From Protoeuglena noctilucae (Eukaryota), in the NCBI GenBank assembly GCA_958009085.1, contig OY253682.1:682001-746000 (forward strand): 64,000 nucleotides of DNA. The letters run 5' to 3'. Within the stretch, counting starts at the first letter, position 1; every line of letters starts with the position of its first letter. The notes beneath the pieces were generated by a model, which had not been told where the DNA came from, did no database searches, and saw only the letters and a program-made list of their open reading frames with translations. The translations under genes and the position numbers were made by a program. Positions 1-55,347 of the stretch are shown here, in pieces.

Positions 1-1351
1 CTTGAGAACGTCCGCGTCCTGGTGAGGGCCCGGCTGGCTCTCGGGACGTTGGCTGGGGGTGCCGCGGGGGCTGACGTGGGGGCTGACGTGGGCCCACGCG
101 CTGTGCTCGCAGGTGCTGGACGAGGCCGACCGCATGGTGGAGCGGGGCTTCCTGCAGCAGGTCAGCAAGGTCAAGAACCACATCCGCCCGGGGCACCAGA
201 CGCTCATGTTCAGCGCCACTATCCCGGAGGACCTCGGGAATGTGCGGATGCTGCGGGACGGGCACGCGGTGGTGGACGTGGTCGGGAAGGCGATGGGCGC
301 TCAGACCAACGCCCAGGTCGAGCAGAAGGCGCTTCTGGTGAGAGCGCAGAGGCTCAGCGGCGGGTGGGGGCATCGCAGCAAGCGCGTCTGCGCTCACAGG
401 GAGGGTCCCCCCATGTCACATGGGGGGACCCTCGCCGTCAACTGCAGGCGCCTGTGGAGCACCACGTCGATGTCCTGGTGGACGTGATCGAGTCCGTGGT
501 GGCTGACCACCGGGCCAAGCAGGCGTCGAAGTCGGGGGCCGGCTCGGCGCTCGAGTTCGGATGCGGGGTGGGCGACATCCCCCTGAGCGCAGCCATGCGT
601 GCGGCGCTGGACGCCTGGGAGATCGTGGACGCCAGCGGCTTCCGCGTGATGATCTTCGCGCCGTGCAACCACTACGTCGACTACATCGCCGCGGTCCTTT
701 CCGCCGCGCTGCCCTACGAGGTCCTCGCCATCCACGGGAACCTCACGCAGGGCAAGCGCACGCGGGTGAGGGCGGCGGCCCTGGCTGCCGCGCGGCTGCC
801 TCTCAGCGACTTGTGGTGGCATTACAGCGAGCCCGCCCCGCCGCTCTCACCGCTCGCAGGCGTATGACGCCTTTCTCACGCGGGGCGACACGATCCTCGT
901 GACGAGCGACGCGAGCGCTCGCGGGCTCGACTTCCCGGACGTGTCGGCGGTGGTGCAGCTGGGCTTCAACGCGCGGGCCGAGTACATCCACCGAGTGGGC
1001 CGCACTGGGCGCGCGGGCAAGGGCGGCCTGGGCGTGGTGATCCTGGACAACGAGGTGGAGGCGTCGGTGCTGTCGCCCTCCAGCCCCGACAGCATCGCGG
1101 CCCAGGTCCCCCGGGACCGCGTGGAGGCGTGGCGTCCCCGGCCGGGGGCGGCGCCCGTGCCCCGGGCCGTGTCGCCCTCGGAGGGCAAGCACGTCCTCCG
1201 CGCGTGGGTCGGGGCGTACGCCGGGCGGTGGAAGGCTCTGCGGTGGGACCCCTACAAGGTTGCCAGCATGTGCGAGCGCTTTGCCCGGGGCCTGGGCCTT
1301 GGCGACGACCCCAGCCGCGCAGCCAAGATCCGCGAGAAGTTGCACATCTGA
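1..1351 (+). CDS. DEAD-box RNA helicase, 3' part (5' end outside window); introns 22-112, 338-447, 766-859
   Basis: Spliced frame gives motif II VLDEADRM, motif III FSAT, motif V ARGLDFPDV and motif VI YIHRVGRTGRAG; GT-AG introns; TGA at 1349-1351. Confidence 0.92.
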
Positions 1352-1435: not shown

Positions 1436-2129
1436 TGGGCGAGGGGTCCCCAGGCCCACACGGGGGCGAGATGATGATGTGCAGTTCAATAGCTGAGGGT
1501 GCTGAGGTCCATCAGGATCCTCGCCGCACGAGCTAGGCCCGCGCGACATGAGCGCCTTCCCCCGGGGCTGCCGCACCCCGGGGGTTCCATTATCGCAATG
1601 CATATGGCACTTGGCCCGCCCCCGCTAGGTCCCCCCACCCGAAGGCTATGGGGCCGCCGCCCCGGGCTCCAGCGCCCCTAGCCCCTTCGCCGAACCGCCG
1701 CCCCTGCCGGGACGAGCAACCGCAGGATGCCACGCGAGCGGGCCCCTGGGTACAAATACAACAACGAAGCAACGAAGCAGAGACAAGCCCCCATGCCGCG
1801 GCGCAGAGCACTTTCGCCCCATGCTAACAACGGACCCCACCCTGGTCCCACCGGCGCGGTCCCCGCGTCCCGCCGGTCGCTCTGCGTCCCCGTCACGAAA
1901 GCCTGCCGTCCCTCTGCACGCACACAGCGCGCAGCGCCCCGAAAGCCCCCCTAGACTCGGGGGCGCGGCTTGTCCCGACCAGCAGAACTCGAGCGCGTCG
2001 TGCTGCCGCCTGGCGCCTGCCAGGGGATATGCGACCGCATCAGCCGTCGCGAATGCACGCAAAGCACCCAACCGCACCCCCTCGCCGACTCGCCAGCCTC
2101 CGCCTTGGCCAAACCACCGCCGAACCACC

Positions 2130-2225
2130 GCACTGCGCGCCACCGCGCCATTTTTTGTGAACCGGCTCTTCATCACCGGCCATAAAGGCGCGGTGTCCAG
2201 AGGGCGCCACGAGGAGGCGGCCGGC
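2130..2225 (-). ncRNA. HDV-like ribozyme core (P3-L3-P1-P1.1-P4); 5' part displaced to 3237-3275
   Basis: Minus strand GCC-UCCUCGU-GGC-GCCCUCU-GG-A-CACCGCGCC...GGCGCGGUG-GC matches the HDV genomic layout GCC-UCCUCGCU-GGC-N7-GG; J4/2 is non-canonical. Confidence 0.6.
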
Positions 2226-2226
2226 G

Positions 2227-3236
2227 ATGATGATGAGCGATTCAACAGTCGAGGGGTGCTATGACTCTCAGAGCCACGCCTTGCGGCAGAAGTGCCGTCC
2301 CCCGGGGTAGCTGACACCCCGGGGTTTCCATCGTTGCAGTGCATATGGCACGTGGCCCGCCCCCGCTAGGTCGCCCCACCCTAAGGCAAAGGGGTCGCCC
2401 ACCCCGGGTTCTTGCACCCCTAGCCCCCTCGCTGCGCCCGAAGGCAGAATCGCCGTCCCAGAGTGGGACGATGCAGCCGCGGGGGCCCTCCGTGGAGACC
2501 CCCGGGCGTCTATTACAAAAGGTGAGGCCGAGGCTAATGACGATCTGTGTAGCTTATGTGCGGCCAATCATGACATCCCCCGCTCCCTACCCTCCTCCCC
2601 TCCTCCTCAGGCGGCCCGGCTGCTCGCCCACCCAGCGACGCTGGCCCGGACGCGAGGGCGGTGGGGGCGGTCCGAACGCAGACGGCGTTCATCGGGGGGC
2701 CCAGCGTTGCCCCTGGGCGCCCCGCTCGCCCACGCTGCGCCCCTGAGGGCCGGCTGCCTCTCATGTGGACCGCCCCAGACCGCCCCGCTCCGGGTGCGTG
2801 CGCCGGCACGACCCACTCGGCCGTGTGCCCAGAGACCCACGACGCGACCCCGCTCCTCGCTCCCGCACGTCGACCTTGGCCCTTGGCCCGTCCTCTCCCG
2901 CGCCCGTCGGCCCTGGCCCGTCCCTCAACTCCTCGCCCCCACACGCCCAGATGACCTTGGCCTGTCACGCTGGCGACCTAGGCCCATCACGCTGACGACC
3001 TAGGCCCATCACGCTGACGACCTTGGCCCATCACGCTGACGACCTTGGCCTATCACGCTGACGACCTTCAACCGACGCTGTGGCGACCCTGGCGCTTTAA
3101 CGCTGACGACCTTGGCCCACCTCCCGCTCACGCGCACCCGCGCGCCCTTATAACCGTGGCCTGCCTCGCGCCCCCGTCGCCCCCCCAAACACCCGACACC
3201 CCTGTGTCGCCCAGCCCATGCCCACCCACACCATTC
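2227..3236 (-). mobile_element. 5'-truncated LINE copy A' (~1.0 kb, 3' UTR only) with 11-bp TSD
   Basis: Near-identical to 3305-4355; flanked by GGCGGCCGGCG at 2216-2226 and 3237-3247; ATC tail. Confidence 0.9.
2950..3121. repeat. 22-bp minisatellite (acgctgacgaccttggcccatc), ~8 degenerate units, in copy A'
   Basis: Direct tandem units visible in the sequence, no spacers. Confidence 0.9.
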
Positions 3237-4027
3237 GGCGGCCGGCGGATCGCGCCATCGCGCATCCGAGTCCCTGATGATGATGATGATGATGATGATG
3301 AGTGATGATGAGCGATTCAACAGTCGAGGGGTGCTATGACTCTCAGAGCCACGCCTTGCGGCAGAAGTGCCGTCCCCCGGGGCAGCTGACACCCCGGGGT
3401 TTCCATCGTTGCAGTGCATATGGCACGTGGCCCGCCCCCGCTAGGTCGCCCCACCCTAAGGCAAAGGGGTCGCCCACCCCGGGTTCTTGCACCCCTAGCC
3501 CCCTCGCTGCGCCCGAAGGCAGAATCGCCGTCCCAGAGTGGGACGATGCAGCCGCGGGGGCCCTCCGTGGAGACCCCCGGGCGTCTATTACAAAAGGTGA
3601 GGCCGAGGCTAATGACGATCTGTGTAGCTTATGTGCGGCCAATCATGACATCCCCCGCTCCCTACCCTCTTCCCATCCTCCTCAGGCGGCCCGGCTGGCT
3701 CGCCCACCCGGCCACGCTGGCCCGGACGCGAGGGCGGTGGGGGCGGTCCGAACGCAGACGGCGTTCGTTGGGGGGCGCAGCGTTGCCCCTGGGCGCCCCG
3801 CTCGCCCACGCTGCGCCCCCGAGGGCCGGCTGCCTCTCATGTGGACCGCCCCAGACCGCCCCGCTCCGGGTGCGTGCGCCGGCACGACCCACTCGGCCGT
3901 GTGCCCAGAGACCCACGACGCGACCCCGCTCCTCGCTCCCGCACGTCGACCTTGGCCCTTGGCCCGTCCTCTCCCGCGCCCGTCGGCCTTGGCCCGTCCC
4001 TCAACTCCTCGCCCCCACACGCCCAGA

Positions 4028-4198
4028 TGACCTTGGCCCGTCACGCTGACGACCTTGGACTAATGCGCTGACGACCTTGGCCCATCGCGCTGACTACCTT
4101 GGCCCATCGCGCTGACGACCTTGGCATATCACGCTGACGACCTTTAACCGACGCTGTGGCGACCCTGGCCCTTTGACGCTGACGACCTTGGCCCACCT
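4028..4198. repeat. 22-bp minisatellite, ~8 units, in the LINE 3' UTR
   Basis: Same unit as 2950-3121. Confidence 0.9.
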
Positions 4199-6332
4199 CT
4201 CGCTCCGCGCACCCGCGCGCCCTGATACCCGTGGCCGCCCCCCCGCTTACGCGCCCCCGCGCACCCAGAAGACCTTGGCCTGCCTCGCGCCCCCGTCGCC
4301 CCCCAGACACCCGACACCCCTGTGTCGCCCAGCCCATGCCCACCCACAACACTCGTTGCCCCTTGTGTTACTCTCGCCGCCGCCGCTCGCTGTTGCCGCG
4401 CTGCCATCGCGCCCGCCCCCAGAAGCCCGCTACCCTGCTGTGTGCCGTGCGAGGGGTCGCCCCCGCCAACGCCACCATGCCGGGCGCCAGCACCCCACGC
4501 CGTCCGTTGCTCTCCTGCAGGGCCTCCTCAGCAGACTCCCGAAGACAGGCCCTCCGGCCCCGCTTGCGCTCCCACTATCCCCGCCTCGTTGCAGCCACGC
4601 CGCTCTCTGATCCTGTGGCGCCTGGTCCGTTCTGCGCCACTGCCGGGTGTTCCCACGACATCCCCGGCGTTCCACCCCACGGGCGCCACGTCTCTCGCCA
4701 CTGTCTGAGCCCATCAACCCGTTGCTGCCAGCTCTGCCCCGACGTTTGTCCCCCGTCGCACCCTTTGCCAGCCCCCCCCAGCGGGGCTGGTCTCGCACGT
4801 TGGCTGGAGCACAGGCGACGCGCTGGCGACCCCCACGCGGACCCACCCGACCAGCGCCAGAGCCCCTGAAGGGCCACGGGCGGGGAGGCCACGCGGCACG
4901 CGCAGTACCGTGGGTGTGTGGGGCGCGCCGCGACGGCGACGGAGCAGTCGCCCCACGGGTGAGCGCTGGCGGCTGTGGGACACCAAGGGCCTGCGAGGCA
5001 TGGCTGCAGAGGGCTAGGGGTGAGGCAAGGGTACGTGTGCTCGTCCGTCCAGGTCTGCGGTCAGGGAGAGGTGACGGTGTGCGTGACGGAGGATGAGTGC
5101 TGGTGTGGGTCCTGATCTGCGGCTGGCAAAGAGGGTTAGGGTGGTCGTGGGAGGATGCGAGGAGGTCTGTGCGTGATTGGGGGAGGTCAGGAGGTGCAGA
5201 TGCTGTGCTGGATCAGTGTGTGGTGCTTGGTGCATGGGGAGTGATGCGCTGAGGGAGGCGTGTGCTCACCTGGGCATTAGCTGTGAGGAGAGGGTGCTGA
5301 GCCTTACCTGTGCAGCTAGGGGGGGGGTGCGTGGGGCAGGAGGGCTTGCGAAAAGGGCGAGGCTGGTTGGGCGTGTGAGGTGAGGTGTGTGGGGGGGCGT
5401 GGTGCGTGAGAGAGGTGTGGCGTTGGGCTGGCAGGGGGAGGGGTGGGAGATGATGTGTGCTGAGCAGGAAGGTGGTTTATGTGGGGGTCCATGTGGAAGA
5501 GGAGAGGGGGTTGAGAGGTGAACGTGTGTATGTCAGTGGTGATGCACGGTGAGTGGGCAAGAGTGGTGCTGAGCGGCGAGATCGTGAGATGAGTGACGAG
5601 GGTGCGTGCAGAGAGTTAGAGGGCGTGTGTGGTCTGGTTGGAAGAGGCATCTACCTGTTAGCTGCGGGCATGGACGGGGCGGCGTGTCATGCGGGTGAGT
5701 GCTGCTGGGGCAGGGTGCGTGTGCAGTGTGATGTGGGGGGTGGAAAGTGTGCGTCATAGGAAGGCAGTGGGCTGGCTTAGGGACCTGGTGGGAGCAATGC
5801 AGTCGGGTGGATGTGGGAGTAATGCGGATTGGGGTGGGGTGGCATGGCCGGCTGCGGGGAAGGTGTAGAGCAGGCGTGTGGGTAAAGCTGTCGAGTGTGC
5901 GTCCGAGAACCTGCGAGGCATGCGAGAGATGGAGCGTGGGTGCGCAGAAGCCCTTGGTGTCCCGAGCGCCGGCACCCTCCCCGTGAGGCGCCCGCCCTTG
6001 CCGCCACAGCGCGCCCCACGCCCCTGCGGCTGCGCGCGCATCGCGTGGACCCCCCGCCCGCGGCCCCTCTCAGGCTCCGCCTCCGGCCAGGCAGCCCAGG
6101 GGGTCGCCGGTGGCGCCGCCGTGCGGTACTCCAGCCCATATCATCCTGGGTGCAGGGGAGCTTGTTTTAGCCGGCAGACGGACTCTTCCGTAGATGCTCA
6201 GTGTGGCCGTGGGCGCCCCAGTTGGCCGGGGCGCCGACGCCGGAACGAGCAGCCCGAAGGCCACCCGTCCGGCGCCGGCGCCCCGGCCCGAATGTCGTGG
6301 GGTGATGGCGTGCTGCGAATGAAGAGGCCCCC

Positions 6333-9300
6333 TCAGGGGAGTAGCGGCTCGACGGCTGCCCATGTGGGCGCAGTGTAGGTGAAGGTGGACCTCGCCGGGT
6401 CCCTTGGGTGTAAGAGGGCGTCGTCAGGGTGCGTGCAGCGCGCGAGGGCCCGCCCGCCCCGGTACGCCGCCAGAGCGACGAGCTCCTCGGCCATGATGCG
6501 CGTCATCTGCGCGAACAGCTGTGCCGGGGACGCGTCCGCCCCCGCGTCCTTCGTCAGCTGCTGCCGCCTGCGCCAGATGACCTGCACGGTCGCCCCCGCC
6601 ACGACCGCCCACGTGAGCGGCCCCAACCGCGCGCCCTCCGGCACGCGCAGCAGAAAGAGGGCCGACGGGCGGAGGGGCGCCCCCTGCGCCCCCCCCGCCC
6701 ACGCCACGATGCCCCTCGCCACGCGCCACACCTCCCGCGCGCGCGAGCACTCCCAGAACGCGTGGGCCGCGCTGTCCTTTCCCATGCACGCCTCCCCCTC
6801 CTCCGTCAGCAGCGGGCACTCGTCCCGCTCCGCCCAGTAAATCCTGTCCTGCGTAGCCCACCCGTCCGCCAGCGTCAGCCACAGCCGCTCGTGCAGGGCG
6901 TCCGACAGCGGCAGTCCGTTGAGCGCCACCAGCGTGCGCCTCAATCCCTCTCCCGTTAAGCCGTGTCCCTCCCCTAGCGCCGCCGCCCAGCCCTCCGCCT
7001 TGCGCTCCAGCCGCTGCCGGATCGCCGCCCTGTCACACGTCGTCCTCGCCGCCTCCCGCACCGTGTAGGAGGCCAGGTCCAGCGCCGCCTTGGAGGCGAC
7101 GCCGGGGTCCAGTGCCCAGCCCGGCGCCGTGGCCGTCATGGGCCGGTAGAAGTCGTTGGCCTCCCCGCCGCCCGGGGAGGCAAGTCGCAGGCGCTCCATG
7201 AAGCCCTCCGTGAGCGCCAGCCCGTCCCACGGGTCCCATTGCCCCTCCACGTCTGGCCGGGCATACTCGTTGCCCGGCCCAAGGAGGCCCAAGTCCAGCA
7301 TAAAAGCCCCAACCACCCAGCCGAGGCCCCTCCGATCCACCCCCGGCAGCCGATCATAGCCCAGCGCGAACGCCCAGGAGACCCACGTGTCCCATCGCCG
7401 CGCCGGGTCCCGCATGCAGAGATAATGCCCCACAGTTCCGAAACCCCGTTACGCCATCGCCCTCCCCACCGGGTGCAGGAGGAGGGGCCGGCCGCCCCCC
7501 GCCGGCCACCCAGCACCCCCCTCGTCGATCCCATCATCCGTATTGTCGTCGCCCGGCGCGCCGTCGTGCACCCACGCCCCACCAGCCCTCCCATGGACGC
7601 CCGTCGCGAAGCTGTGGAGCGATGAGGCCGAATCGTCTTGGTCCTGTCCCATGTCGTTGTGGAGGGGCCAGCCGCCCCCTCCATCGCCGGCGCCCCCAGG
7701 GCTGCCACCCCCGCGCCCGGGCCGCCCCCGCCGGCGGTACAGAGGACCCCCGGGGTGAGAAGCGACGCGCAGAGTAGATCCCCCTTTGTAGTCCCAGTGA
7801 CGGGGGTGAAGAAGTCCGTAGAAGAGGCGAAACGCGAGCCGTCCGTGCCCGCCAGGCCCCCGCCGCCCACGCGCGCCCCCCGCCAGCCATGCCCGTCCAT
7901 GGCCACGTTGGACAGGCGGTCCGCCAGGGCGTTCTGCTCCCGTGGCACGTGCTCCCAAGTGATGTCGAGGCCCGCCGCGAGCCTCTGCGCCTCGGTCCAC
8001 AACGGCACCAGCGCCGGGTGCCGCAGCGCCGAGCAGTCCCGCGGATCCATGGCGCGGATGACGAGGAGGGAATCCCCCCGGACGCGGAGCTTGGTGGCGC
8101 CGAGCTCGACTGTCGCGCGTAGCCCTCCCAAAAGCGCGGCGAACTCGGCCTGGTTGTTGGAGGCCCCGCGCACGGCGGGGCCCGCGAGCTCCAGCGTCTC
8201 CACCCCCTCGCCTTCCCCGGCCGCCAGCACCGCCCCCGCGCCAGCCGTGGACGTGTCGGAACCGTTGCCCCGCGAGCCCCCGTCGAAGTTGAGCGTCAGC
8301 CGGCCCTCCGCCGCCAGGTTGGTCCAGCGCTGCTGGGCGACCTCGTCCGTCGTGGGTGCCAGAGGTGGCGGCGCGTGCACGGGCCCGAGGGTCACGCGCA
8401 GGGACCCGAGGCCCTTGATGGCGTCGCAGAAGCTCTCGAGGGCCGGTAGCTTGCCCCGCAGGCGGCGGGACTCGATCAACTGCGCCACGTGGCAACCGTC
8501 CGTCTCGGGCAGTGAGAAGGGCAGCAGGCCCAGCCGGCCTGCCCCGAGCCCCTCCAGGCACGCCGTGAGGATGCCAGCGAGACCGCCCAACTGGCCGTGA
8601 GCGCCCACGCGCTTCGTGATGAGGGCGCGCGCCAGGTGCCGGAGCCGCCGCGCCGCCGTGTGCGCGTCCAGCGGGAGGGCGCCCAGCCCCCCCTCCTCCG
8701 GCGGGGCGGTCAGCATGATGCGGCCCACACGGAACCACACCTGCCCCGCCGATCGTGCGTTGAGGACATAGCGCTCCTGGACCCTCCGCAGGTCAGCGAC
8801 GCACGAGTGGTCGGCGGCGGGGGACATCTCCAGGTGGTACCCCGCGAGCGAGGTGATGTAGGCGTTGGCGACGCGCGCCCGACCCCGGATCGGCAGCCCC
8901 AGCGATGACGCCGCGTCCGCGCGGCGCAGGGCCTCCCCCAGCCACCCGGGCCACACCAGCGCCGCCTGCTCTCTCGTCTGCGCCCCCAGCAGCCGCACGC
9001 CCCCCGGCTCCACCCCCCACGGGCAGCCCTGCGCGGCGGCCTTGGCCTCCTGCCGCTTGTTGATGCGTCCCAGTCGGTAGAGCTTCGTCTTGGTCTGGCT
9101 CGCCTTCAGCCCGGACACACGGTGGAAGTCCCGCAGCACCTCGGCCAGCTCCCGCCACGGGTCGAGTTGGTTCCTGTCGCGCCCCACGAGCCGTTGGAGC
9201 AGCACGTTGAAGTCGTCGGCGAAGGCCAGCAGCGTCTCGGCCCTGCCGCCCGTCGTCCGGATGCCGAGCACGCGGTCGCACCGCGGGCCGCCCGGCAGCT

Positions 9301-11902
9301 GCACCGGCTCCTGGCCCCACGCCCGCAGCCTCTCTGCGAGGGGCTCCACCGCCAGCACGAAGATGAGCGGGCTCAGGGGGCATCCCTGCTTGACGCCCCG
9401 GTTGAGCGGGAACGGCTCCCCCGCCGCCCCGTTGAGGACCAGGCTCGCCCGGCTGTCGCTCTGCAGCGCCACCGCCGCCTTGACAAAACGCGGCGGGAGC
9501 CCTCCCCACGCCATCGCGTCCGCAGCCCACCCCCGGAAGGCCGTGTCGTACGCCTGTTCGAAGTCCACCAGCACCGCCCACGCCGACTGCCGCCGGATGC
9601 GCATGAGCTCGTCGAGCAGATGCAGCGAGTAGATGGCCGTCCCAATGTCACGCCCGGGGACGAAACCCAACTGGTCCTCGTGCACGAGCTGCGGCAGCAC
9701 CCGCAGCAGCCGCGCCGTCAGCACCTTGGCCGAAGACTTGTAGAGGACGGACAGTAGGGAGATGGGGCGGTACCGCCGCCAGTCCGTCCGCGAGCCGCCC
9801 TTGTGGATGAGCGTGATGGCGGCGTCCGCGAGGCGGCCGTCGTGCCCCTCGCCGCGGAGGAGCTTGTTGACGAAGTAGGCGACCACTTGCTCGACACCCG
9901 CCTCGGTCCCGGTGCCCTGGCACGCCTTGAGCAGCGCCGGGGAGATGCCGTCCGCGCCACCGCAGCTGTCGCCCCGTAGACCCTGTATCGCCTCCGCCGC
10001 CTCCGCCCGTGTCACGTCTGCCTCGAGAGCGGCCCTCGCCTCCTCCGACAGCGGCGACCGCGGGTTGCGCAGGAAGTTAGCGCGTGCCCTCTCATGTTGG
10101 CCGTCCGCGGAGGCAGGGGGCGCGGCAGGGGCGTAGAGCTGGGCCATGTTGGTCTGCAGGTCCCGCGCGAGGTCGTCCGTGACGCCCTCGACCCGCCGCC
10201 GCCACTTGAAATGGGCCGTGATCCGCCGACTCGGCACGGCCCCGAAGACCCGCAGAAAGTGCTTCGCCCGCTCGCTCTGCCACTGGACCTCCTGCTGCTC
10301 CAGCACCGTCAGCTGGCGCTGCAGGTCCAGCATCCGGTCCCAGTCCTCCGTCGCGTTCGTCCGCTGCGCCCTCCTCTCTGCCCGTCCCAGTTGCTTCTCC
10401 AGACGCCTCCGCTCCCCGTCCCGCCGCCGCCGCACCACCAGGTTGATCGCCTCCGCGCGGTGCCGGATGACCTTGGCCACTCGCACCGACGTGCACCCCG
10501 GCCCGTCCGCCGGTAAGTCCCTCCACACACCCCGCCGGAATCGCTCGGCCTCATGGCTCCCCGGCGCCCAGAGCGGCCGGACCTGCCGCAGCGGGTTGCG
10601 CCCCGCGGCCCTGTCTGCCCGCCGCCGTAGCGTCAGGACGAGCGCCTTGTGGTCCAGCCCGGGCACGAAGCGCGCCGCCAGCGTCGCCGGGTACCGGACC
10701 AGCAGGGCCGGGCGCGCCAGGCAGCGGTCAATGCGCGCCGCCGGCGTCGCTGCCCCCTCCGCTCGCGCCCCGAACCACGTGTAGGTGTCCCGGCGCAGCC
10801 CCAGCTGCACGTGCACGTCCGCCAGCCCCTGCGGCCCCGTCACGTTCTCCGTCCAGTGGATGACCTTGGCCAGGTCGTCGTGGTAGCGCCGGGACGCCCG
10901 CTCGAGCGGGTGACCCGACGTGCAGTTGAAGTCCCCAACGACGATCGTCTCCCTGTGCGCCTGGCGAGGCGGCATCAGATGCCGCAGCCGCGCAGTGAAG
11001 TCCCTGTGCGCTGCCGCCCCCCCGGACGCCGGCGCGTAGACCCCCACCACCGTGAAGCGCCGGTCGGCCCATGCGAGGTCGACTGCGCACGCCCGCCCCG
11101 CCAGCCCTTCCACGTCCGCCCCGCGCCGCTCCGGCGCGCCCGCCACCGACTCCCGATGTACCAGCACCCCCACGCCCCCCGGGCCGCCGTTCTCGTCCAG
11201 CGACCAGTGGCAGAAGTATTGGGGGAAGAATCCCGACGCCACCGCCTCCTGCCCCGCCCGCATCTTGACCTCCTGTAGAACCACCACGTCCGCCCGCAGC
11301 CTCCGCACCAGCCGCCGCACCGTCGCCCGCTTGCCCGCCATGGCCCCGCTCGACAGCCCCCGCACGTTGACGCTGACGACCCGCAGGTCGTCGGGCGCGA
11401 GGTCCCGCGCCGCGCTCCGCCTTCCCCGTCGCCGTGGCCCGCGCGCCGGCACCGCGGCCGGCGCCATCCGCGGCGGCGGCGGCGGCGGGGGCAGATTCCC
11501 CAACGGCGGCAGCGGGATGGGTGGGAGCGCGCCGATACGCGCTCCCGGCGCCTCTCCAACCTCCGACCCTTGCGCTCCCGAGCTTCGAACGCCTCCAGAC
11601 CGACTCTCCCCGCTCCCCCGGCCTCGCAGACCGCTCCCGCCCCCCCTTCTCCTCGCGCCGCCATGCTGCCCCAGCGCGCCCCCGCGCCGCGCACCCGCGC
11701 CCGCTCCGCCTCCTCCGCCCCCCGTAGACCCTCCTGCGATATCTTCTGAACCTTCTGCATGCAAAAGACCCGACGCCGGCCCCGCCCCGCCACCGCGCGG
11801 GCCCCGAACGCTCGAGCTAACAACACCATCTGATCGGGCCGCCCCCGTCGCCGCATCCCCCTCCCGCCGGCCTCCCGGCCCATCCATGCTACAGATCGTC
11901 AT
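6333..11902 (-). pseudogene. LINE polyprotein: AP endonuclease (~11390-10630), RT (~9960-9000), RNase HI (~8300-7895), CCHC zinc finger (~6820-6745); one frameshift and one in-frame TAA
   Basis: Motifs SVNVRGL, LQE, GVYAP, GDFN, RIDR, LDHKAL; RPISLL, QLGFVPGR, DFEQAYD, QGCPLSP, FADD (9223-9212); FDGGSRGN, NNQAEF, GDSLLV, HVPREQNALADRL; CPLL-x6-C-x7-H-x4-C. First ATG at 11902; ORFs 8738-7449 and 7433-6333 share a frame, separated by TAA 7449-7451. Confidence 0.92.
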
Positions 11903-12176
11903 TTTACCGCACGCTGCCAAGCGCGCGGCGCCTCGCAAGCCTCCCTCGGCTCCGGGGCGCGGCTCGTCCCGAGCCAACGAGACCGAGCGGCTGTGCCTTC
12001 ACCTGGCGCCTGCCAGGGGTTTTGCGAACTCGCCTCCTGCCTAGAGAGTCGCGATGCACATGACCGTTCCGCCGCACCCCTCGCCACCCTCCCGCTCGCG
12101 CTACGCCGACGGCCTACCTGATGATGATGAGCGATGATGATCCCGCGCGCCTCACGACCTCACGATGAAGTACATC

Positions 12177-12216
12177 GATGATGATGAGCGATTCAACAGT
12201 CGAGGGGTGCTATGAC
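12177..12216 (-). mobile_element. 40-bp terminal fragment of the LINE (3' end plus ATC tail)
   Basis: Identical to 2226-2265; a still shorter tail-only piece (atcgctcatcatcatc) lies at 12120-12140. Confidence 0.85.
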
Positions 12217-12255: not shown

Positions 12256-12376
12256 TTCCCCAGCCGGGACTCGAACCCGGGCCACCAGGGCTTTTCGCCG
12301 GCGCTTCAACCGGAGGTATCGAACACGCGTCGGCATGATTGAAAACCTGGGATCCTAACCTCTGGACCACTGGGGA
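12256..12376 (-). tRNA. tRNA-Glu(TTC) with 49-nt canonical 37/38 intron (12339-12291)
   Basis: Acceptor stem TCCCCAG/CTGGGGA, D arm GTCC/GGAT, anticodon stem CCAGG/CCTGG with TTC, T arm CCGGG-TTCGAGT-CCCGG. Confidence 0.96.
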
Positions 12377-53194: not shown

Positions 53195-55347
53195 ATGAAG
53201 AAGCAAGCGCCCGCGAACACGGCTAGGGACCCTGACGGGGAAGGCGTGAACGGAGAGGGGGACCTCACCCCTCATCGCAATCCGCTCTACAGCCCTTCGC
53301 TCAGCTCGCGACGCATGAACTCCGTTCCCCAACCCGCGGGATCCGGCGCGATGCCGAGCTCTGGTGAAGCGCGATGGTTGATGCATGTTGTTCTGCTGGC
53401 AATGGCTTCATGCCCCGACTGATCCGGATTCCAGCCGCAACCACCCGGCCCAGCGTGGCCTCCCTGCCATTTCAAGATCTCGCCCCGCTCGCGAGCACGC
53501 GCAGACATTCTGAACCGCCTGGGCTTGAATCGGAACCCCTTCACGGACCGAACGGCGGAGAAGGCGCGGCTCGATCTGAGCGCGCTGTACGTCCACTCGG
53601 ACCTTCAGGGCTTCCAGCCCAACGAGACGACGTACGTTTTCTTCGGGAAGCGGGGGAGCGGCAAGACGACCATTCGGCTCCAGATGCAGGAGGCCTACCG
53701 GCGAGGGCAGCCGCGTGGTATCACCGACGGGGCGAGATGCCCGTGCCGTGGCGGGAAGCGGCCATTCCTTCGCCCCGCAGGTCTTACAACGAGAAGGCGG
53801 TGCGCGCCGGGGGCATGGGCCACCTGTTGGTGGACCTGAGTCGCCCCGGGAACGTCTCCTCGTGCCTGACCACGTTCAAGCGGGCCATCGCCTGCGCCGA
53901 GGACGCCTGGGACGCTGCCTTTGCCGAGCACTGGTCCGAGTCGGACGTGGTGGACTGCATCCTCAGCATCGCCAGCACGGAGCTGGTGGACCGGCTGACC
54001 AACCCCGACGACCCCCTCATGTCGGCGCGCATGGTGAAGCGCCTGCAGGCCGACCCACGCGCGGCGCGGCACATGCTGCTGCTGGCCCACCTCTACGCGG
54101 TGACGGACGCCTCGACGCTCGCGCGGCTGCGGGCGGACCTCACGCCGCCCCGCGACTGGACGCGGCTGCTGCGGGGGGCGGGGGTCGTCGGCGGGGTGGG
54201 GGCGGCTGTGGCAGGGGCATCCCGGGTGCCGCAGGTCCGGGAAGCGCTCGACCGGCCCCTGCAGCGGTGAGCAGGCCTCTCGTACGCACGGAGGGCGCCT
54301 CAGCATGACGGCACCCGTCCTTTGCTCATCTCACTGCCCCGTGCCGCTGCTTCCCTGCAGGGCTCGGGAGGAGACCGAGCGCACCTTCCCGTGGATCTTC
54401 TCGCACCCGCGGGTGGCGGCCACGGTCGCAGCGGCCACGGCGGGGGCGCTGCTCTACACGACCATGCAGGCGCGCGCCCGGTGGTCGCTGGCCCGGGCCG
54501 CGAGGCTCCAGCAGTGAGTGCGGCAGCGTTGCTGTGGCGGCATTGGCGGTGTAAGCGGTGCGAGGATGTTGTGGCTGCTCCCGTGCCCGCAGGCCCATCC
54601 GGGTGGTGCGCCACATCGACCCCGCCGTGCTGTCTTCCCTCCTCGACGCGCTCTTCACGCGCCAGGACCGCGCCGCCGACATCCAGACGCTCTACGTGGG
54701 CACTAGCACCTCGCAGAAGCTGGAGCTGCTGTACGAGGTGGCACGCGTGGTGGGGTTCGAGTCCGTGGCCGTCTTTGGGGACTGCTTCGACGAGTGCCCC
54801 CTGCTGGACCCCGTGGCGCACCCCACGGCGCTCAAGGTCTTCGCCTCCCGCATCTGCCGCAACGACCTCCTCTCCTGCGGCCGTCAGCACTGGTTCTTCC
54901 CCGACAGCCGCCTGGCGCTCGACCTCAGCACCGACCGCACGCTCAAGGAGGCGCGGTTCGACCGGCACTTCGTCAGGGACCTGCAATGGAGCCGCCACCA
55001 GCTCGAGCAGCTGGCACAGCGCCGGTTCGAGGCGGCCAGGGCGCACGGGAGCGGCGGGCAGGTGAGGGTGTGGGCGGTGCAGGGGCGCTGGCCCGGGACA
55101 AGCCCTGCTCGAGAGGCATTGTCATCGACCCTCGCTCCCCCTCCCCCAGGCCGCGTCCTTCGAGGATCTCTTCACGATGATTGGCGGCGAGGACTTCAGC
55201 TCGTACCTCTCCAAGGTCACCACGCCGCGCGAGCTGCTCATCATGATGACACAGCTGCTGACGCGCCTGGAGAGCAACCCGGGGGGGGCGCTCACGGCGC
55301 AGGACATGGAGATTGCCGTGGAGAAGGCCAAAGAGCAGAACGTCTGA
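53195..55347 (+). CDS. Uncharacterised P-loop NTPase with an internal hydrophobic hairpin
   Basis: LGLNRNPF...AE, Walker A GKRGSGKT, Walker B-like VAVFGDCFDE, LQWSRHQL...RRF, TPRELL; 5 introns. Confidence 0.75.

Follow-up and report, generated by a model that had tools for sequence, protein, structure and literature searches.

A putative HDV-like ribozyme in the 5′-terminal module of a short retrotransposon family of Protoeuglena noctilucae

Introduction

Does a short retroelement of the marine eukaryote Protoeuglena noctilucae begin with a self-cleaving ribozyme, and could the copy seen here still cleave? The question is raised by a stretch of 64,000 nucleotides with 67% G+C (contig OY253682.1, positions 682,001 to 746,000; hereafter the window), in which an element of about 785 bp lies head-to-tail on the (CAT)n tail of a full long interspersed nuclear element (LINE). 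The 5′ end of retroelements is a known site of ribozymes of the hepatitis delta virus (HDV) type (PMC6765202, PMC3185411, PMC3774820). An earlier note, made from the letters of the window alone, had proposed an HDV-like ribozyme at the 5′ end of this element family, and both the predicted fold and a family boundary read from seven other junctions support that proposal, on an architecture different from the one it drew. We consider it likely that the 5′ end of the family is defined by a working HDV-like ribozyme, and the window copy is probably dead.

Public runs containing the region comprised marine metagenomes, metatranscriptomes and three coded organisms (A to C), of which the related organisms B and C contain smaller shares of its sampled words (0.37 and 0.10), and contigs of the runs X2, X3 and X7 were compared with the window. 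Other copies of the element are known from a protein collection, as spurious predicted open reading frames (ORFs) running through the leader on both strands, so that bases at their junctions were obtained by back-translation. For all ribozyme coordinates the RNA corresponds to the minus strand, and published work is cited from excerpts of the papers given by accession.

Results

Insert A′ and its empty site

The minus-strand string quoted in the earlier note is present in the sequence, and its excision of an insert, A′, by a target-site duplication (TSD) holds. A′ is 1,011 bp long and lies between two copies of a 10-bp direct repeat, GCCGGCCGCC (3246-3237 and 2225-2216); it shares 96.6% identity over 939 nt with the 3′ end of the neighbouring LINE (3303-4239). 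The empty site is seen in high-depth contigs of X2 and X7, which cover 1800-2226 and then continue with 23 letters matching 3246-3270 instead of A′. It is also seen in translated copies. The minus-strand frame (P0013) led to a protein cluster (P0015) of 12 members, seven of which cross the 5′ junction without A′, reading ...RWRDPPAASSW...; of the remainder, one (P0018) is of the window type with the A′ tail, and four start downstream and are uninformative on the junction. The plus-strand frame (P0014) led to five proteins, three of which cross the junction without A′, and the other two are 5′-truncated copies abutting LINE tails.

Catalytic position

In HDV-like ribozymes J4/2 is usually a C-N-R-A junction placed directly before P2′. 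Its first base is the catalytic cytosine, and a C-to-U change at this position inactivates such ribozymes, according to excerpts of PMC10879173. On the RNA strand, position 2172 is C in the contigs of all three covering runs (X2, X3 and X7), and within 2141-2226 it is the sole difference between the window and the family in these contigs. Translated copies agree, with Thr (ACG) in place of Met in seven of seven and, on the other strand, Val in place of Ile in three of three, which amounts to C in 10/10 translated copies and U only in the window copy. Since contigs and translated copies both give C, the family J4/2 reads CGAA, with C at the predicted catalytic-cytosine position, whereas the window copy has UGAA. 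The earlier note had taken C2139 as the equivalent of C75 of the HDV ribozyme; a C does stand there, but the catalytic position is better placed at 2172. One inactivating base in the window copy had concealed the canonical fold, and the nested insertions misled the earlier reconstruction.

Family 5′ boundary

Back-translation with the codon table gave seven distinct upstream flanks at the junction, of five minus-frame and two plus-frame types. The equivalent of 3278 varies over them (T, T, G, A/C, A/C, A, C). By contrast, the 3277 equivalent is G by necessity in five types and compatible with G in two, the 3276 equivalent is G where it is fixed (only two types), and 3275-3274 read GG in six of the seven, with GA in P0026. 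The 3273 equivalent is G in the window and unconstrained by the codons of every other copy; for 3272-3271 the five minus-frame types allow nothing but GA, and the two plus-frame types are compatible with it. Because the seven junctions diverge upstream and agree from 3277 down, the short family most simply begins at the 3277 equivalent, as GGGGGG-A-C. The putative ribozyme would therefore lie at the extreme 5′ end of the element, where the seven junction types and the window share what follows the boundary but differ in what precedes it, a signature known from retrotransposon ribozymes (PMC6765202). The window copy itself reads U, C, A, G, G, G at 3277-3272, so that the first two family bases are absent.

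Predicted fold of the 5′ module

With the catalytic position left open, hand threading places the parts in the nested double-pseudoknot order P1-J1/2-P2-P3-L3-P3′-P1′-P1.1-P4-J4/2-P2′, the 5′ strand of P1 being that of the inferred family terminus (Table 1). From P2 to P2′ the parts form one contiguous stretch, 2225-2161, and use standard pairs. P3/L3/P3′, the 7-nt 3′ strand of P1 and the GG of P1.1 are present as the earlier note described them. P3 has 3 bp, L3 follows the pattern U...CC...G, and a 2-bp P1.1 forms with the bases directly after P1′; GCC-UCCUCGU-GGC...GG aligns to P3/L3 of RF01787 (drz-agam-1) and RF02682 (F. prausnitzii HDV ribozyme). P1 of HDV-like ribozymes has 6-7 bp starting at the cleavage site, usually with a G-U wobble. 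The six terminal G of the family fit CCCUCU (2204-2199) with G1 opposite U2199, giving a duplex of −8.6 kcal/mol, a predicted value for a terminus deduced from amino acids, and the window copy retains only AGGG/CCCU (4 bp). In J1/2, the contigs give C as family consensus at 3264, where the window copy has U.

A single A separates P1.1 from P4, whose strands are 2195-2187 and 2181-2174. The 9-bp "P4" of the earlier note, 2195-2187 with 2149-2141, exists as complementarity, but P4 is the local hairpin 2195-2174 instead. The odd J4/2 and the displaced, bulged P2 that accompanied it are not needed either, for P2 (2225-2219/2168-2161) follows directly on the canonical CGAA junction; with 7 bp and one bulged A, or 6 contiguous bp, it exceeds the minimum of 5 bp for this helix, and its 5′ strand abuts P3. 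With L3, P1′ and P1.1 held single-stranded, the nest of P2, P3 and P4 is the minimum free energy (MFE) structure of 2225-2155 (−26.9 kcal/mol; RNAeval, RNAfold), and in a transcript ending at 2161 the nest is again the MFE, with 16 of its 17 pairs. An Infernal register with the P2 3′ strand at 2181-2173, no P4 and U as catalytic base was set aside for the register with P4 and CGAA. Two further registers were tried by hand and dropped, one with P4 as the hairpin 2181-2160 and CAAA, the other with J4/2 as CCAA at about 2109 (a second match, offset 94).

Table 1. Features of the short element, its predicted ribozyme parts and its upstream neighbours
Feature	Position	Strand	Basis
tRNA gene, 121 nt, presumably with an intron	12256-12376	−	Rfam, 50.6 bits
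41-bp LINE 3′ fragment with (CAT)n tail	12176-12216	−	
Autonomous LINE; (CAT)n tail adjoins the short element	3276-12152	−	Sequence, domain and contig evidence
P1 5′ strand remnant AGGGA (positions 3-7 of family GGGGGGA)	3271-3275	−	Sequence, seven junctions
J1/2, CUC plus 21-nt hairpin (3267-3247)	3247-3270	−	Sequence, predicted hairpin
Upstream TSD copy, duplicating the P2 5′ and P3 5′ strands	3237-3246	−	
A′, 5′-truncated copy of the LINE 3′ end with (CAT)n tail, between J1/2 and P2	2226-3236	−	
P2 5′ strand GCCGGCC	2219-2225	−	Pair listing; helix also in free MFE fold
P3 GCC/GGC (2218-2216 with 2208-2206) enclosing L3 UCCUCGU	2206-2218	−	Rfam-aligned
P1 3′ strand GCCCUCU; U2199 would give a G1-U wobble	2199-2205	−	
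P1.1 GG, pairing with C2214 and C2213 of L3	2197-2198	−	
P4 local hairpin, 8 bp, C2190 bulged, UUUAU loop	2174-2195	−	Free and constrained MFE
J4/2 region, A-U-G-A-A in the window copy (A2173 and J4/2 2172-2169)	2169-2173	−	
P2 3′ strand G(A)GCCGGU, 7 bp with A2167 bulged, or 6 contiguous bp	2161-2168	−	
Competing downstream strand, pairing with 2195-2187	2141-2149	−	
Remainder of the ~785-bp element	1470-2160	−	Leader, 3′ module, (CAT)n tail at 1479-1470

Chance expectation and searches

The window holds three instances of the strict P3/L3/P1′/P1.1 core, where 40 shuffles averaged 0.7, and the core taken alone is weak evidence. A tail of P4, [C/U]NRA and P2′ (at least 6 bp) occurred in 0.14-0.16% of 100,000 random sequences of window composition, and in the window it follows only the core at 2218. 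The cores at 53906 (−) and 23529 (+) have no J4/2 or P2 partner and were judged to be chance matches; the former, with UCCUCGG as L3, lies in coding-like sequence. At window base composition, the chance that each of the six terminal bases could pair with CCCUCU is about 0.004. Taken as independent, the core, the tail (0.0015) and the terminal P1 together give about 4e-6 per window, before the placement at an element 5′ end is counted; the descriptor was picked after the sequence had been seen, although its terms are standard.

A search of metagenome, genome and viral contig collections with the exact 23-base core returned no match. Searching with the ORF alignment gave 597 pattern matches in metagenome contigs and 61 in viral contigs, none of them confirmed, and two short spurious matches in bacterial metagenome-assembled genomes among the genome contigs, which were dismissed. 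Against the protein representative library, P0015 recovered only itself and P0016. Protein identity to the representative was 88-98% in 12 of 13 rows, the exception being P0016 (JGI, outside cluster P0015) at 53%. Full-text word searches of a paper library turned up no HDV-like ribozyme described from retrotransposons of algae or of protists other than trypanosomatids.

Short element, partner LINE and neighbourhood

The short element runs from 3275 down to 1470, about 785 bp once A′ is removed, and is without LINE genes. Part of its leader (2034-1926) is 80% like the LINE 5′ untranslated region at 12027-11920 over some 110 nt, and homology to the LINE 3′ end covers the final ~230 nt of the element, which terminate in (CAT)n. 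In contrast, the first ~134 nt, which hold the ribozyme part, have no counterpart in the LINE copy of the window and are not repeated elsewhere in the window. Because it has a LINE-like leader and 3′ end but lacks the LINE genes, the short element is a non-autonomous retrotransposon of the type without long terminal repeats, partner of the neighbouring LINE. Sharing the ~230-nt 3′ module and (CAT)n with a LINE whose domains are present, it could be mobilised by the LINE reverse transcriptase (RT) through the common 3′ end.

The LINE frame (11998-7136, −) is uninterrupted, with 1,620 aa and APE endonuclease, RT and RNase H(-like) domains, and the RT used by the short family probably comes from this LINE. 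Its relatives among proteins number 11, two of them at 99-100% identity and presumably from the same genome. The other nine reach only 28-35%, too distant to serve as comparators for the 5′ leader, and for that reason the LINE represents an isolated lineage, possibly still active. LINE-leader contigs of X2 (depth 446) and X7 span 12120-12152 and follow the window as far as 12152, past which they differ from it. As these multi-copy contigs carry 12120-12152 together with the LINE leader, this segment travels with the LINE family, and as they part from the window upstream of 12152, the window copy of the LINE is probably 5′-truncated or of another leader subtype. The family leader at 12120-12152 (−) holds an internal (UCA)n-like stretch that resembles the 3′ tail of the LINE itself.

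On the minus strand the order is a tRNA gene that presumably has an intron, the 41-bp LINE 3′ fragment, the full LINE and the short element. ARAGORN, run with bacterial settings, did not call the tRNA gene at 12376-12256. Small 5′-truncated pieces of the LINE and of the short element, of 41, 21 and 82 bp, abut (CAT)n tails at 12120-12216 and 1388-1469 (−), and tail-to-head pile-ups like that of the window were also observed in two ORFs from other loci (P0031 and P0032). Such pile-ups suggest a preference of new copies for (CAT)n tails already in place, or template switching by RT. By eye, the host DNA adjoining the element, at about 1-1350 (+), resembles a DEAD-box helicase over its C-terminal half, with a motif similar to HRVGRTGRAGKGG.

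Discussion

Points weighing against a working ribozyme

Several observations weigh against a cleaving ribozyme that sets the family 5′ end. P1 would include two G-U pairs and, where A7 faces G2205 at the top of the helix, an A-G mismatch, and P2 requires a bulged A, failing which C2219 stays unpaired. The 5′ strand of P1 was read from the amino acids of spurious ORFs and not from DNA, and two of its bases are weakly fixed, 3273 in no other copy and 3276 in two junction types. The high-depth contigs of X2 and X7 stop at 3270 and miss the inferred G1 by 7 nt, even though the translated junctions are unanimous on the bases that come next. This implies a major branch there that the eight junctions do not explain, and a major variant of the family 5′ end may exist that was not seen among them. 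Once 2149-2141 is transcribed, a competing fold, formed by the 9-bp helix of the earlier note and its neighbours (−73.4 against −59.7 for the nest), is better by 13.7 kcal/mol, and none of the 17 nest pairs survives in the longer transcript, pseudoknots being uncounted in this calculation; cleavage would therefore have to be co-transcriptional. The 9-bp helix 2141-2149/2187-2195 would unfold both P4 and P2, and could either attenuate cleavage or belong to the fold of the mature leader.

Comparative and statistical support also falls short in places. The helices show no covariation among the 13 aligned rows, because the copies are near-identical, and the 155-nt module is no stabler than its shuffles (MFE z = −0.5, an uninformative value). 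The Infernal search brought no Rfam family to its gathering score: RF01787, the best match, scored 19.7 bits against 37, RF02682 scored 9.9 against 44, and RF00094 and other HDV-type families were not listed; the Rfam models have narrow seeds and leave P1 unscored. In the RNA run X3, a contig of 579 nt covers 1852-2226 with 376 of its letters and continues past 2226 for another 203, unseen; if these 203 letters are RNA, they represent uncleaved read-through. The RNA-library contigs of X3 were also considered as proof of transcription or of cleavage, and they show neither.

Published ribozymes tolerate comparable irregularities. In R2 elements, P1 has 6-7 bp with top mismatches in a quarter of the elements, P2 has at least 5 bp and is mismatched in a third, and P4 ranges from absent to long, as given in excerpts of PMC3774820; co-transcriptional cleavage is reported for L1TcRz (PMC3185411).

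Alternative explanations

One alternative is that the family carries a relic, with the fold inherited from a ribozyme, cleavage lost, and the uniform 5′ end due to a promoter inside the leader or to transcription that starts there. The weak P1 of 6 bp with its wobbles and mismatch, the P2 bulge, the strong competing helix downstream and the sub-threshold Rfam scores would all suit a decayed ribozyme, and a leader can indeed be a promoter, since the same 77 nt of L1Tc serve as promoter and ribozyme (PMC3383444). Against this, the catalytic C, CGAA and every helix are intact in 10/10 other copies; the sole copy with U is the one that is also truncated and interrupted. The family boundary, moreover, coincides with the predicted G1. 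We regard a relic as unlikely on this evidence. It is still less probable that a GC-rich, structured 5′ leader resembles a ribozyme by chance, without ribozyme ancestry. The abundance of the strict core (three against the 0.7 expected), the ease with which GCCGGC-type palindromes make P2-like helices, an Infernal E-value of 0.67 in the first scan of 1.8 kb and the ordinary MFE of the module speak for coincidence, but the joint expectation of the full arrangement is small even with its placement in the first 110 nt uncounted, and the other two cores lack the tail.

The architecture drawn in the earlier note fares worst, and we give it hardly any credence. There, P1 (GGAGGGA) was split by the 9-kb LINE, so that GGA (12143-12141) joined GGGA (3274-3271), P4 was long-range, C2139 was catalytic, P2 was displaced, and tRNA read-through supplied the RNA. 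The two P1 fragments are present, and the 9-bp helix is real and prevails in the MFE structure of the long transcript. However, 12152-12120, from which GGA was taken, belongs to the LINE leader in the multi-copy contigs of X2 and X7, and the short family stops at the 3278/3277 equivalent in seven junctions, with flanks unrelated to 12175-12141. P2 at 2126-2117 would also leave a J4/2 of 14 nt without CNRA, where a canonical alternative is available, and no link to tRNA read-through was found, the tRNA gene lying 9 kb upstream behind the full LINE. Of the later insertions said to have broken the ribozyme, that of A′ is real, whereas the LINE did not insert into P1; copies abutting (CAT)n recur (P0031, P0032), which indicates that the short element sits head-to-tail on the LINE tail.

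Proposed mechanism and significance

A working, if putative, HDV-like ribozyme at the family 5′ end thus seems the most probable account. In the intact form, the first ~110 nt of the RNA would be the ribozyme, with six G (P1) pairing with CCCUCU just past P3′. Because new copies often insert onto a (CAT)n tail in head-to-tail orientation, they would be transcribed within longer RNAs, for instance from upstream elements; the ribozyme would fold during transcription and cut 5′ of G1, and the freed RNA could be copied by the LINE RT. If the released RNA is copied from G1, full-length copies would all start there. The window copy itself has probably left this cycle, being damaged three times over, by loss of G1-G2, by U at 2172 and by a 1,011-bp LINE fragment between J1/2 and P2; the earlier note had already suspected that it may be dead.

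A broader scenario, which we advance tentatively and think rather doubtful as a whole, would extend ribozyme-bearing elements to a lineage beyond the animals and trypanosomatids for which 5′ ribozymes of this sort are documented, and in this lineage the short element parasitises both the RT of the LINE and upstream transcription. In it, head-to-tail (CAT)n arrays would be read through and the ribozyme would cut each unit from the array, with the helix 2149-2141/2195-2187 acting as a timer that closes the ribozyme fold after a short co-transcriptional window. Should the intact form cleave, ribozyme-defined 5′ ends would be extended to a microsatellite-tailed pair of a LINE and an element like a short interspersed nuclear element in a marine protist, and the C of the family and the U of the window at 2172 would offer a natural matched pair for experiments.

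Comparison with known systems

A close parallel is the L1Tc/NARTc pair of Trypanosoma cruzi, with L1TcRz in the Pr77 hallmark. According to excerpts of PMC3185411, PMC3383444 and PMC6765202, it likewise has a ribozyme right at the start of an APE-type LINE system, a short non-autonomous partner that shares or carries it, tandem elements and a proposed release from co-transcripts. The Protoeuglena pair differs in its host lineage, in that only the short element shows the module, the LINE copy in the window having a different leader, and in the (CAT)n tails of both the short family and the LINE. R2 ribozymes share the order of the fold, the letters of P3/L3/P1.1, a P1 of 6-7 bp (here predicted) directly before a variable J1/2, and the tolerance of irregular P4 and P2, while R2 itself is site-specific for 28S rDNA, has a restriction-like endonuclease and often uses 28S sequence in P1 (excerpts of PMC3774820). 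Here, unlike R2, the flanks are unrelated and the partner LINE encodes an APE endonuclease together with RNase H. With drz-agam-1 (RF01787), the module shares an identical L3, UCCUCGU, and a 3-bp P3, but it scores below threshold and its P2 3′ strand falls at 2181-2173 with U as catalytic base in the Infernal alignment.

The genomic HDV and CPEB3 ribozymes have a J4/2 and a G1-U wobble like the CGAA and the predicted G1-U of this family, and the nested double pseudoknot is common to all of them. They reside in a viral replicon and an intron, in contrast to the retrotransposon 5′ end occupied here, where P1 is a run of G with two wobbles. Set beside these systems, the short family of Protoeuglena noctilucae would represent a clean additional example of a known trick, in a GC-rich marine eukaryote.

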